A DNA stretch of 4,507 nucleotides from IMG/VR virus record IMGVR_UViG_2706794673_000010. One strand, given 5' to 3'. The translations under genes and the position numbers were made by a program. This document shows positions 1 to 4,507 of this stretch, in pieces. The notes under the pieces were generated by a model. The model searched no databases, was not told the origin of the DNA, and was given only the letters and a program-made list of their open reading frames with translations. Within the stretch, counting starts at the first letter, position 1. Every line of letters begins with the position of its first letter. Origin of the DNA: a virus (taxonomy: Duplodnaviria; Heunggongvirae; Uroviricota; Caudoviricetes).

Positions 1-50
1 GGGAATATCTCCCCGGCAGCCTTCAGGGAAAAATATCATCAGATGGCTGC

Positions 51-404
51 TTAAAAAAAGAACAAATGGTAGTGTCCGCTATTGCCAGTACACCTCAATT
101 GCTCTGCGGCTTCGCTCAGAGCTGGCGTATGTTCCCGGCCTACTGATTCACACAGGTAATCAACGAAACCGGACACCAGTTTTCGTTCGCGAGGCGTGAT
201 CGCCCCACCGACCGGAGTCCAGTAATCGAAACCCAGTTGCAGGAGTTTGAAAAAACGCTTGTGGAATGCGTAGTTACACACACGCTTAAAGTCTGCGTGT
301 ATCCACTCACCTATTTTGATTTGATGCAGAAAATCGCAACTCTCCGGCGTCGCCGGGAGAAGTAATCCGGAAGAGGTTTGTTTGACCAGTTGTATATGTG
401 CCAT
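51..404 (-). CDS. hypothetical protein, 117 aa from ATG at 404..402 (ORF track extends it to a TTG at 446)
   Basis: Open frame ending TAA at 53..51. The ATG at 404 is preceded by GGAG about 7 nt upstream, whereas the TTG at 446 overlaps the upstream stop and has no such site. Product begins MAHIQLVKQTSS; no family recognised. Confidence 0.55.
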   Translation of the reverse strand: MAHIQLVKQTSSGLLLPATPESCDFLHQIKIGEWIHADFKRVCNYAFHKRFFKLLQLGFDYWTPVGGAITPRERKLVSGFVDYLCESVGREHTPALSEAAEQLRCTGNSGHYHLFFF

Positions 405-935: not shown

Positions 936-1277
936 TCAGAGGTGGGCGGGGATGGGATCAGCTCCCCGCCCGGTCACTCTTACTTCCTGGNNNNNNNNNN
1001 NNNNNNNNNNNNNNNNNNNNNNNNNNNNNNNNNNNNNNNNNNNNNNNNNNNNNNNNNNNNNNNNNNNNNNNNNNNNNNNNNNNNNNNNNNNNNNNNNNNN
1101 NNNNNNNNNNNNNNNNNNNNNNNNNNNNNNNNNNNNNNNNNNNNNNNNNNNNNNNNNNNNNNNNNNNNNNNNNNNNNNNNNNNNNNNNNNNNNNNNNNNN
1201 NNNNNNNNNNNNNNNNNNNNNNNNNNNNNNNNNNNNNNNNNNNNNNNNNNNNNNNTGAAGCAGATAGCCTCAAGCAC
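936..1277 (-). CDS. hypothetical protein, mostly masked (only about 7 N-terminal and 17 C-terminal codons visible)
   Basis: ORF-track frame with GTG at 1277 and TGA at 938..936; visible C-terminus QEVRVTGRGADPIPAHL. The masked length (265 nt) is not a multiple of 3, so frame continuity across it is an assumption. Start is uncertain: a well-placed GAGGT + ATG at 1287..1285 hits a stop after 5 codons. Confidence 0.3.
   Translation of the reverse strand: MLEAICFXXXXXXXXXXXXXXXXXXXXXXXXXXXXXXXXXXXXXXXXXXXXXXXXXXXXXXXXXXXXXXXXXXXXXXXXXXXXXXXXXXXXXXXXXQEVRVTGRGADPIPAHL
944..971. repeat. GC-rich perfect inverted repeat (9-bp arms, 10-nt spacer)
   Basis: GGGCGGGGA (944..952) and TCCCCGCCC (963..971) are exact reverse complements around TGGGATCAGC. 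Sits in the last codons of the masked minus-strand ORF. Confidence 0.6.
991..1255. other. run of N (265 nt): masked sequence or assembly gap
   Basis: Contiguous n characters; nothing can be inferred inside. Confidence 1.
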
Positions 1278-1336: not shown

Positions 1337-2023
1337 TCACTCCTTCTCTTCTTTACCGTAGTGGAGTTGACCAATTTTGATAAGAGGGCGTCCCTGAGAT
1401 TTGCGGTGTAGATTGGTATCGCGCAGAGAATACACACAGCCACAATATTCCTGCTGATAGAATTTTTCGCGCTTGCTGATTTCAATCATACGGGACGAGC
1501 CGCCCTGCTTGCGCCAGTTATAATCCCAGTACACCATGCCCGGATAATGCGCGACGGCTCGCCGCCCACAGTCGTTAACCTGCTGCATATTTTTCCAGCG
1601 TGAAATGCCCAGTGAACTGCTGATCACACTGAAACCATTTTCAGCGGCGTACAGCGCTGTCCGCTCAAAACGCATGTCAAAACACATGGTGCAACGGATC
1701 CCTCGTTCGGGCTCCCATTCCATTCCTTTGGCTCGTTCAAACCAGTTGTCTGTGTCGTAATCAGCATCAATAAACGGCACGCCGTGTTGTTCAGCAAAGC
1801 GAATATTCTCATCCTTACGAATTAAATACTCTTTCTGAGGATGAATGTTCGGGTTGTAGAAAAAGATGGTGTAGTCGATTCCCGAGGCCTGAAGCGCCTC
1901 CATCACCTCACCGGAACATGGAGCACAGCAAGAGTGCAGTAGTAGTTTGTTTGCCCCGTTTGGGAGCTCCAATTTGGGCCGTTTGAAATCAGCAACTGTC
2001 ATAAATATGTTTATTGGGGTCAT
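1337..2023 (-). CDS. queH: DUF208 / QueH-like protein (epoxyqueuosine reductase family, Fe-S), 228 aa
   Basis: Uninterrupted 228-codon frame with TGA at 1339..1337. N-terminal [14 protein letters not shown] matches the cysteine motif I recall for DUF208/QueH, with further Cys at RCTMCF and YCGCVY. No clear Shine-Dalgarno before the ATG at 2023 or the alternative ATG at 2002 (MTVADF). Confidence 0.75.
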
Positions 2024-2170
2024 AAAAATATCAAAGAGTGTAGCATTAGAACGGGGCTATCGGAAACAGATGTGTGACTGCTCCCCGCCCTTTCGGGTGG
2101 TCTCCTGATGATTTGAGGGTGCAGAAATCCCTCCGGTTAAGGATTAAATTTTTAACAGTGCTAAATTTAA

Positions 2171-2584
2171 TTATTCAGTTCTGGATTTTGTCGCCCTGCG
2201 TATCCGCGCTTTCGCGTTACGCTCAATCTGTATCAGCTTTTCTATATTTCTCCGCCTTTCCTGTTCCTCCTGGCGCAATAGCCTTACATCATCTGCCAGT
2301 CTGGTTTCTCTTTTTGCCACAGAGAGCATCCAGTCAAACGGCTCCACAACCGCACCGCAGATTTTACAGCGGACCTGACGCTCTTTTTCGTCAACCCGTA
2401 CAGAGGCGTGATGGCAATATGGTCTTTCCGATGGCTCATAAAGAAAATTAACCTGATTACGAGGGTCATCCTCTTTTACCGGAAATAAAACGATATTGCT
2501 TAACTCATCTTCTGGTTTTATTTCCATGCTCCTCTCCTTTGATGCGAATGCCAGCGGTAATTGAAGCCTGATAGCTAATTTCAT
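2171..2584 (-). CDS. hypothetical zinc-ribbon-like protein with basic coiled-coil C-terminus, 137 aa (or 118 aa from ATG at 2527)
   Basis: The ATG at 2584..2582 directly abuts the upstream stop (TGAATG), with AGGAGG 11 nt upstream; an internal ATG at 2527 has GGAGAGGAG nearby. Contains C-H-H...C-x2-C (YCHHASVRVDEKERQVRCKICG) and a charged heptad-like C-terminus. Stop TAA at 2173..2171. Confidence 0.6.
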   Translation of the reverse strand: MKLAIRLQLPLAFASKERSMEIKPEDELSNIVLFPVKEDDPRNQVNFLYEPSERPYCHHASVRVDEKERQVRCKICGAVVEPFDWMLSVAKRETRLADDVRLLRQEEQERRRNIEKLIQIERNAKARIRRATKSRTE

Positions 2585-3007
2585 TCACAGTATCGCCTCC
2601 TGAAAATTACCCTGATAGAAAGCCAGTACACGCTGCATAGCTTCGCTCTTCCGGCACTCGCGACAGATTATATTCAGGCGCCTGTCGTAGCGGCGTATTT
2701 CTCCGTCAGGTAATGACCAGATAAGGTCCGGATCAACAACAACCGGTTTCCTCACCTTTACTCTCGAGAGTTTTTTGCGGGCGCTTTGCCAGTCCTTGCG
2801 AGCCTGTTCAGACGGGAATAAGCCGTAGCCAGAATTATATACATCACCACTTGCGACCAGTTCTATGCATAAGCGACCGACAGACGCACGACTGATACCT
2901 GTTTCATCTGACAACTGCCGAATCGTGACCCGACCGTCCTGATGCACGAGTTCCACAATTCGCGTCTTCAGTTCTTCCCGCTGTTCGGGAGTAAAAGGTT
3001 TCGCCAT
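2585..3007 (-). CDS. hypothetical helix-turn-helix protein, 140 aa
   Basis: ATG at 3007..3005 with AGGAGG 4 nt upstream, 14 nt after the DnaC-like stop. N-terminal segment TIRQLSDETGISRASVGRLCIELV looks like a winged-HTH DNA-binding helix pair; C-terminal CRECRKS. Stop TGA at 2587..2585. Confidence 0.65.
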   Translation of the reverse strand: MAKPFTPEQREELKTRIVELVHQDGRVTIRQLSDETGISRASVGRLCIELVASGDVYNSGYGLFPSEQARKDWQSARKKLSRVKVRKPVVVDPDLIWSLPDGEIRRYDRRLNIICRECRKSEAMQRVLAFYQGNFQEAIL

Positions 3008-3021
3008 AAATCCTCCTGAAA

Positions 3022-3699
3022 CTACTTAACAACCCTCGAATGGCTAACATTCGGACGCCAGCTCTCCCAGTTAAAATTCACCCAGCGNNNNNNNNNNNNN
3101 NNNNNNNNNNNNNNNNNNNNNNNNNNNNNNNNNNNNNNNNNNNNNNNNNNNNNNNNNNNNNNNNNNNNNNNNNNNNNNNNNNNNNNNNNNNNNNNNNNNN
3201 NNNNNNNNNNNNNNNNNNNNNNNNNNNNNNNNNNNNNNNNNNNNNNNNNNNNNNNNNNNNNNNNNNNNNNNNNNNNNNNNNNNNNNNNNNNNNNNNNNNN
3301 NNNNNNNNNNNNNNNNNNNNNNNNNNNNNNNNNNNNGATAGCTGCCGCTAAGTGATTCTTCCCGGTACCAGGTTTTCCGCTGAACGCAAAATTTGTACAC
3401 CCGGTCATCAGTTCATCGGCGATGGATTTCGCCTGGCTTAACGCGTATCGCTGGCCGTCGTTCTGCACCTGGTAATTCGCAAACGAGCATTTACGGTGCA
3501 ACGGCTGGATGCCTGAGCGATTCAGAATTTTTTCCACCCGCAACTGGCGATTCAGGCGGTTGATCTCCTCGCTACGTTTCTGGCCTTCAGCAAGTTGCCA
3601 CTCGCGCCACTCCGCTACCGTTCTGAATGGGGCGGTTACATGTGGCGGGGTCAGTCGGCGGATGCGTTCCAGAACGCCGCCTGTCGCAATATTTTTCAT
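3022..3699 (-). CDS. DnaC-like replicative helicase loader (phage P/DnaC family AAA+ ATPase); central part masked
   Basis: N-terminus MKNIATGGV...RSGIQPLHRKCSFANYQV and Walker A FSGKPGTGKNHLAAAI resemble E. coli DnaC as I recall it; C-terminus RWVNFNWESWR resembles the DnaC tail. The 249-nt N-run is a multiple of 3, so the frame is maintained. ATG at 3699, 6 nt after the upstream stop, preceded by AGGGGG. Confidence 0.85.
   Translation of the reverse strand: MKNIATGGVLERIRRLTPPHVTAPFRTVAEWREWQLAEGQKRSEEINRLNRQLRVEKILNRSGIQPLHRKCSFANYQVQNDGQRYALSQAKSIADELMTGCTNFAFSGKPGTGKNHLAAAIXXXXXXXXXXXXXXXXXXXXXXXXXXXXXXXXXXXXXXXXXXXXXXXXXXXXXXXXXXXXXXXXXXXXXXXXXXXXXXXXXXXRWVNFNWESWRPNVSHSRVVK
3088..3336. 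other. run of N (249 nt): masked sequence or assembly gap inside the DnaC-like gene
   Basis: Contiguous n characters. Confidence 1.
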
Positions 3700-4053
3700 G
3701 GTCCGTTACCCCCTGAAGCCTGGCGGGATCGCACTGTCCGGCAACGAGACGGTGTTAACCTGTCGGAGCAACGTCTCAGGCCGAACACCTTTCGGCGCGA
3801 ACAGGCCCTGGTATTCATTGGCGATGCTGTGTCGAATCACCTGCTCAGGTGTAAAACCCTGCTGACGGAATTTTTCCAGTTCCCGTATCGCCCCGTTAGC
3901 GCCCTGCTCCGTTCGAATCGGTTTTCGCAATGCCTGTCTGAACCGGACCCACTCATGCCAGAGTGTTTCCGGCAACCAATCGGGCAGCTCAATAGCCTCC
4001 GGCTCGAATTTTTTAGACGCTCGTTTTTGGCGAGGGGGAGATCAGTATTTAGA

Positions 4054-4074
4054 TCTTCCTCTTCCTCTTCCTCT
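4054..4074. repeat. hexanucleotide tandem repeat (TCTTCC)3 plus TCT, encoding a poly-Glu tract on the minus strand
   Basis: Plus strand tcttcctcttcctcttcctct; minus-strand codons GAG GAA x3 give EEEEEE in the initiator linker. Confidence 0.9.
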
Positions 4075-4180
4075 GGTAACGCTTTTTGATCCGTTTGTGT
4101 AACGCTGGCAGCGTTACCTTTTCGTTTCAGTTCGCGTATTTTTGTTACTCGCTCGTTTGTAACCGCCCGTTTTTTTTAGA
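4075..4180. other. candidate phage replication origin inside the initiator gene (palindrome, iteron-like repeats, T-rich tract)
   Basis: 19-bp perfect palindrome GTAACGCTG-G-CAGCGTTAC at 4099..4117, with a further GGTAACGC at 4075..4082. CGTTT-containing motifs start at 4092, 4123 and 4154 (31-bp spacing). T-rich stretch 4120..4190 includes T8. Lambdoid origins are known to lie within the initiator gene. Confidence 0.3.
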
Positions 4181-4382
4181 GCTTTTTCCGTTATGACGTT
4201 CAAAGTTAGGTAGAGAAAGCCCTCCGTCATTTTCGACCAGCCATCCAACCTGAATTAACGCATCAGCAAAACCAGACATAAAAGTGATGCGATCTATTGC
4301 ACTTTTTGTAACGCCGCGAGCGTTACAATCTGCATTACCGTCTATCATTTGTTGATCCGCCCATGCCCAGAAGCGAATAACC

Positions 4383-4507
4383 TGAGGTAGCCTGAGTTTA
4401 ACGGACACTCCTTCCTGAAATAGAATGGCATCAGAAGGAGCTAATAATGAGCAGAAAAACCCAACGTTACTCTAAAGAGTTCAAAGCCGAAGCTGTCAGA
4501 ACGGTTC
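4383..4507 (+). mobile_element. left end of an IS3-family insertion sequence (IS600-like), running off the window
   Basis: Begins TGAGGTAGCCTGAGTTTAACGGACACTCC, as expected for an IS3-family inverted repeat (TG...); the orfA start lies 64 nt inside. The boundary is estimated to within a few bp. Confidence 0.7.
4447..4507 (+). CDS. IS3-family transposase OrfA, N-terminal 20 codons (partial)
   Basis: AAGGAG 7 nt upstream of the ATG; translation MSRKTQRYSKEFKAEAVRTV matches my recollection of the IS600 OrfA N-terminus. Confidence 0.7.
   Translation, partial: MSRKTQRYSKEFKAEAVRTV

Follow-up and report, generated by a model that had tools for sequence, protein, structure and literature searches.

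A QueH-type epoxyqueuosine reductase carried as a cargo cassette in the early region of Escherichia lambdoid prophages

The prophage DNA analysed here (the window, 4,507 nt in all) carries on its minus strand an ORF of 228 codons plus stop (1337..2023) that encodes QueH. Our explanation, which as a whole we consider very probable, is that this gene is a functional QueH captured from a bacterial chromosome, and that it travels as a cargo cassette which would give Escherichia a B12-independent way of completing queuosine.

The assignment to the QueH family is secure, as the profile, the alignment of the ligands, the predicted fold and the gene context all agree. The match of the ORF to the Pfam family PF02677 (QueH, formerly DUF208) reached 220.6 bits (E = 1.9e-65), which is far beyond chance for a cut-off of 23.5 bits, and was full-length, covering profile positions 1-174 of 175. 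An initial annotation made from the sequence alone had proposed a QueH/DUF208 Fe-S enzyme in a prophage early region, on the strength of an 11-residue cysteine motif (residues 27-37 of the 228-aa ORF, window 1913-1945) and of later cysteines, and this proposal was borne out by the profile search as well as by the alignment of the cysteine ligands. Indeed, the conserved cysteines are kept, and all seven metal-site positions align between the prophage protein and the crystallised QueH of Thermotoga maritima, whose entries were the only matches among solved structures (7lc5, E = 5e-22). Cys25, Cys26 and Cys29 fall on Cys9, Cys10 and Asp13 (CCAPD) of the T. maritima enzyme; since C9S and D13N mutants of the latter are deposited in the PDB, the Cys9 and Asp13 positions have been functionally probed. 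The cysteines of the CCAPC, RCTMC and YCGC motifs (Table 1) are invariant in 87 prophage copies and in 24 homologues. An AlphaFold model, built from a shallow alignment of 24 homologues, was of moderate confidence (pLDDT 73, pTM 0.77), and with this model Foldseek returned T. maritima QueH entries as its top five matches (probability 1.0, rmsd 2.4-2.8 Å, target-normalised TM 0.82-0.85), the next fold being that of TtuA-type PP-loop proteins (E = 6.5e-5, TM 0.3-0.4). A search of the QueH protein against NCBIfam gave zero matches. The identity of the protein was already known, since its family, structure and name stand in public resources; RefSeq lists WP_012421537.1 as "epoxyqueuosine reductase QueH". 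Phage annotation misses the function, probably because the phage family concerned, phrog_3217 ("unknown function"), begins past the Fe-S motif, at residue 41 of the 228-aa ORF (window 1337-1903), and so omits CCAPC.

Table 1. Positions of the main features in the window; cysteine numbers refer to the 221-aa protein unless stated otherwise.
Feature	Position	Strand	Remarks
IS600 3' end (transposase gene)	1..97	+	Truncates the DUF1367/NinB-like gene
Run of N over the hokD (hok/mok toxin) locus	991..1255	.	Corresponds to L001 19709-19999; just downstream of QueH
QueH CDS	1337..2002	-	221 aa from the conserved ATG, most likely start; stop TGA 1337-1339; PF02677, RefSeq WP_012421537.1
YCGC motif	1436..1447	-	Cys187, Cys189; aligns with YCGC of T. 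maritima QueH
RCTMC motif	1682..1696	-	Cys104, Cys107; aligns with RCERC of T. maritima QueH
CCAPC motif	1916..1930	-	Cys25/Cys26/Cys29 (32/33/36 in the 228-aa ORF)
Seven in-frame codons after ATG 2023	2003..2023	-	Probably 5' leader, non-coding
Conserved leader	2024..2066	-	Travels with queH; start of homology among loci with unrelated upstream genes
Candidate extended -10, TGCTACACT	2037-2045	-	Seen by eye; conserved
Weak -35-like TTTCCG	2061-2066	-	18-nt spacer to the candidate extended -10
Small zinc-ribbon protein, phrog_1621	2171..2527 (region to 2584)	-	Upstream neighbour, outside the QueH cassette
DUF977 protein ("Ren-like" in PHROGs)	2585..3007	-	PF06163 E = 1.1e-33, phrog_142; backbone gene upstream of the QueH slot
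IS600 5' end, second copy	4384..4507	+	orfA from 4447; interrupts the O-like replication gene

The true start of QueH is most likely the second ATG, at window position 2002, as judged from eight annotated loci that were aligned and then from 87 copies in total. This codon is invariant in the 87 copies and is the start used by RefSeq, which gives 221 aa. The ATG at 2023, taken as the start in the initial annotation and probably 21 nt too far upstream, is ATT in one locus (L006), and in another (L076) a 1-nt insertion removes it from the reading frame. The lack of a Shine-Dalgarno sequence that had been pointed out is real: none precedes either ATG (CTCTTTGATATTTTT-ATG, CCCCAATAAACATATTT-ATG), and the leader is A/U-rich. 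Within this leader, TGATGCTACAC is invariant across 11 distinct upstream variants. A consensus scan of the QueH strand of the window called no sigma-70 promoter and no terminator. Possibly, the cassette has a promoter of its own, for which the conserved TGCTACACT with its poor -35 would be the candidate. Given that no Shine-Dalgarno sequence, promoter or terminator was recognised, QueH may be read only from the early operon after induction, and from its position the gene would be transcribed with that operon. A riboswitch or other RNA element upstream of QueH was also considered and was rejected, as an Rfam search of the window at E <= 1 matched no family and the fold of the leader is unremarkable (z = -2.2).

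By ancestry, QueH lies in prophage DNA of the lambdoid or Rac-like type, namely in its rightward early/nin region. The genes lie on the same strand in the order O-like replication gene, DnaC-like ATPase ydaV, DUF977, zinc-ribbon ORF, QueH, hokD (masked), phrog_340 ORF and DUF1367/NinB-like gene. A DUF977 gene is found upstream of QueH in all annotated loci; the zinc-ribbon gene is confined to the locus type shared by the window and FDAARGOS, and is absent at other QueH loci. The product of the latter has a CxxC...CxxC core, with a weak match to the Pfam family Zn_Ribbon_TF that stays below threshold. Besides the run of N over hokD, a second run (3088-3336) masks the middle of the DnaC-like ydaV. 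Since both runs are shorter than the matching stretches of the near-identical locus L001 (265 vs 291 nt and 249 vs 318 nt), the lengths of ORFs that cross them are unreliable.

At 99.8% identity, the window matches a prophage that E. coli FDAARGOS_944 carries between ybhA and pgl. This prophage has four tRNA genes (Gly, Thr, Arg, Ile) upstream of its lysis genes, with no queuosine tRNA among them (L001 17182-17492), and, towards its distal end, ipaHb, which codes for a type III effector (L002 8761-10587). In the window itself, a 4.3-kb prophage fragment lies between two IS600 copies of the same orientation. Bracketing by IS600 in the same orientation is a pattern typical of Shigella-like genomes. 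Species-representative genomes, searched for an exact match to the IS600/prophage junction, yielded none. The left copy has cut the DUF1367/NinB-like gene (window 87-404), of which residues 1-106 are left. At the other end, the O-like (YdaU-type) replication gene (window 3709-4390) is a pseudogene: IS600 has taken the place of its first 32 codons, and two frameshifts spread it over three reading frames, whereas L001 holds an intact version of 262 aa. Given these IS600 truncations and frameshifts, the prophage is here a decayed remnant that has kept QueH intact.

The limits of the cassette emerge from comparison of the loci. Homology begins about 65 nt upstream of the ORF and ends about 10 nt past its stop, and since these edges are shared despite unrelated upstream genes, QueH moves as a compact cassette. 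In some loci, of the type found in the phage HannyBb, the cassette is bordered upstream by a truncated gene for a DNA methyltransferase (L005 5762-5968, L007 3268-3453), which suggests that recombination brought the cassette in and removed the rest of the methyltransferase gene. While backbone DNA of the query region matches 4349 genomes, the QueH gene is present in 995 of the 5426 complete E. coli genomes (18%), almost always as a single copy, and in 985 of them at >=80% coverage. In this respect QueH is a moron-like cargo of variable presence, which occupies a fixed slot with short flanks of its own. In E. coli it always lies within the replication/nin region of lambdoid or Rac-like prophages, for instance at the ybhA site, at the Rac site adjoining trkG in strain 042 and in an O157:H7 strain; Escherichia albertii also has it between DUF977 and hokD. 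Among viruses, 189 IMG/VR contigs encode a relative. In the phage collection, 25 records match, and the lambda-like HannyBb is the only one that is clearly an isolated phage and has a close copy, there annotated as "hypothetical protein"; the rest comprise faecal contigs that lack annotation, as well as records that are very large or fragmentary and possibly bacterial DNA. A prophage copy of this enzyme had been called unexpected; with the name QueH already in RefSeq and the gene in 18% of complete E. coli genomes, it is less so.

As to the origin of the cassette, its nearest copies outside Escherichia share 80-92% amino acid identity with the prophage protein and come from Scandinavium (92%), Kluyvera (91%), Enterobacter (89-90%), Erwinia (86%) and Providencia (84%). 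None of the phage neighbours seen in the window was found within 4 kb of these non-Escherichia queH copies. The four neighbourhoods examined (Erwinia, Providencia, Scandinavium and Enterobacter) consist of ordinary non-phage chromosomal genes: queH adjoins purL and a two-component system in Erwinia, adjoins tmcA in Providencia, and lies among metabolic genes in Scandinavium and Enterobacter. Because these close relatives lie among ordinary chromosomal genes, we infer that the phage gene is a captured housekeeping queH. QueH is conserved to an unusual degree across Proteobacteria at large, with 75-80% identity to Sphingomonas, Stenotrophomonas, Pseudomonas and Rhizobium-type copies (loci L096-L175).

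QueH converts epoxyqueuosine (oQ) into queuosine (Q) at position 34 of tRNA-Asp, -Asn, -His and -Tyr. E. coli has no de novo synthesis of cobalamin, which it needs to import, and without B12 it accumulates oQ. To our knowledge, no difference in decoding between oQ and Q has been established. QueG and QueH catalyse the same reaction from oQ-tRNA to Q-tRNA (PMC9508795, PMC4646009); QueG is a cobalamin-dependent oQ reductase (PMC4646009), and QueH performs the step with iron only (PMC9508795, PMC13443448). As QueG depends on imported cobalamin, a phage QueH would allow Q synthesis to be completed regardless of B12. Moreover, queG was present in 5426 of 5426 E. coli genomes, and the best reading of the prophage gene is therefore that of an accessory reductase, which would turn oQ into Q without B12 on the four tRNAs of the host that have GUN anticodons. 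One of the two roles offered by the initial annotation, a change in the queuosine status of tRNA, fits well here, given the 80-92% identity to housekeeping queH. In the scenario we propose, the gene would encode a functional QueH, i.e. a cobalamin-independent iron-sulfur epoxyqueuosine reductase; a single-gene cargo cassette, made of a leader of about 65 nt and the ORF, would have its origin in a chromosomal queH elsewhere in the Enterobacterales, and would now sit between the DUF977 gene and the hok/variable-cargo slot in the rightward early operon of Escherichia lambdoid/Rac-like prophages. The phage copy might then free the last Q step from the B12 supply, in the lysogen or during phage growth. 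That the protein is a functional QueH appears almost certain, its catalytic activity being deduced; whether B12-independence is the selective rationale is, in our opinion, an evenly balanced question.

Several published observations bear on this rationale. E. coli has four cobamide-dependent enzymes, including QueG, and takes up cobamides through the outer-membrane transporter BtuB; it apparently has not evolved for maximal cobamide uptake, and BtuB doubles as a phage receptor (PMC11841063). Against the rationale, deletion of queG in the same study left the growth of an E. coli metE mutant unchanged with either cobamide tested (PMC11841063). Staphylococcus aureus has both QueG and QueH, differently expressed, which its authors ascribe to cofactor supply (PMC13443448). 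The balance of oQ and Q also shifts in phage-infected Shewanella (preprint 10.64898/2026.03.05.709803), and both cases lend the reading of an accessory reductase indirect support. A rationale based on codon usage, i.e. a need of the phage itself for Q, was rejected, since the share of NAU among NAY codons in phage late genes (0.55-0.56) equals that in a sample of 18 host genes (0.57).

The DNA next to the cassette raises another explanation. The slot directly downstream of QueH is a variable cargo site (L008 306-2316; L009 653-2292; 0-4 kb past QueH in the viral loci L015-L094). Among 79 viral-contig loci, hok/mok fills it in 57, and a cytosine methyltransferase accompanied by an NgoMIV-family restriction enzyme in 12. 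The latter combination also occurs in the O157:H7 strain, one strain has a Kiwa KwaB-like pair, and several further small cassettes are seen elsewhere. Such a neighbourhood, with hok/mok, NgoMIV-type restriction-modification and Kiwa, is what might be expected if QueH were itself a gene of conflict, through which an altered oQ/Q state of the four host tRNAs either shields lysogen or phage against toxins or defences that target tRNA, or shifts translation so as to exclude other phages; however, this adjacency may merely reflect a shared insertion hotspot. We know of no toxin that tells oQ from Q. Phage infection of Shewanella raises Q at the expense of oQ and affects resistance (preprint 10.64898/2026.03.05.709803), and queG frameshifts arose in phage-resistant Vibrio isolates (preprint), both of which would be in line with a role in conflict. 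In contrast, the PADLOC defence profiles gave no family at E <= 0.01 for QueH, and its near-identity to housekeeping queH argues against a novel activity. We therefore regard a role in conflict as unlikely, and keep to that of an accessory reductase.

The accessory reductase is also the reading that agrees with the maintenance of the gene. QueH is intact in 87 of 87 copies, at 221-222 aa and with the seven cysteines invariant; an eighth, Cys145, is Ser in one lineage. Among eight prophage copies with the same leader, pairwise dN/dS was 0.02-0.04 at dS values up to 0.45, and the phage-borne lineage is thus under strong purifying selection. This leaves very little probability for a neutral passenger, acquired by illegitimate recombination and of no benefit to phage or host, even though the host already has queG, no Shine-Dalgarno sequence, promoter or terminator is recognisable, and a truncated methyltransferase abuts the cassette in some loci, as accidental capture would predict. 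Indeed, besides the low dN/dS and the intactness of every copy, the spread of the gene over different prophage backbones and its survival in an IS-riddled remnant both speak against it.

We know of no epoxyqueuosine-type base in DNA. The second role offered at the outset, that QueH belongs to a phage 7-deazaguanine pathway of DNA modification, which in this reading would protect DNA from restriction, is not supported and is the most improbable of all. In its favour, bases derived from preQ0 are known in the DNA of phages (PMC6884629), and restriction-modification or other defence genes are often present in the slot that QueH adjoins. However, neither DpdA/TGT nor the preQ0 genes (FolE, QueC/D/E) were found by annotation and Pfam scans of the larger unnamed ORFs in the whole FDAARGOS_944 prophage or in the full HannyBb sequence of 45 kb. 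Furthermore, QueH has tRNA-bound oQ as its substrate and follows QueA in the pathway, and the protein shares 80-92% identity with housekeeping enzymes of tRNA modification.

The phage context of QueH seems to be undescribed: in the literature searched for QueH or DUF208 together with phage or prophage, we found no description of a prophage-borne QueH, and a 2019 survey of viral deazaguanine genes reported zero homologues of QueA, QueG or QueH in the viruses analysed (PMC6884629). With no prophage QueH described and a negative survey, the context presented here is a small addition rather than a discovery. It could nonetheless be of use. Given that it combines a duplicated host function, another cofactor and strong conservation, the prophage gene provides a simple natural experiment on whether, and when, the conversion of oQ to Q limits fitness in B12-poor conditions. 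A bolder proposition, which we advance tentatively and consider rather doubtful, is that, among viruses, only the lambdoid phages infecting Escherichia and Shigella are known to carry a queuosine-specific enzyme acting after insertion, and that this enzyme is kept by strong selection since a cobalamin-free conversion of oQ to Q, independent of BtuB uptake and of competition for corrinoids in the gut, gives the lysogen or phage translation a measurable benefit. If true, it would provide a first genetic means of asking why the last step, the reduction of the epoxide, should matter.

In conjunction with known systems, prophage QueH can be placed as follows. Like the phage clusters of DpdA with FolE, QueD, QueE and QueC, it is a phage-borne gene of the queuosine/archaeosine pathway; these clusters comprise the early, preQ0-making steps and a DNA transglycosylase, whereas the FDAARGOS_944 prophage and HannyBb carry the last, tRNA-specific enzyme alone. 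QueG, in contrast, belongs to an unrelated protein family, needs cobalamin and is universal in E. coli, in which QueH is accessory. Chromosomal queH of the Enterobacterales (also of Photorhabdus) matches the prophage protein over its full length, at 80-92% identity, and differs in its location, the prophage copy sitting between DUF977 and hok. With T. maritima QueH (PDB 7LC5/7LC7), finally, the prophage protein shares the same CCxP(C/D), RCxxC and YCGC positions and the fold (TM 0.84). It differs from this enzyme, which is chromosomal, in being carried by a prophage, in having about 19 additional residues at its N-terminus and 25 additional basic residues at its C-terminus, and in having Cys where T. 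maritima has Asp13, a substitution that is shared by 24 of 24 aligned proteobacterial homologues.
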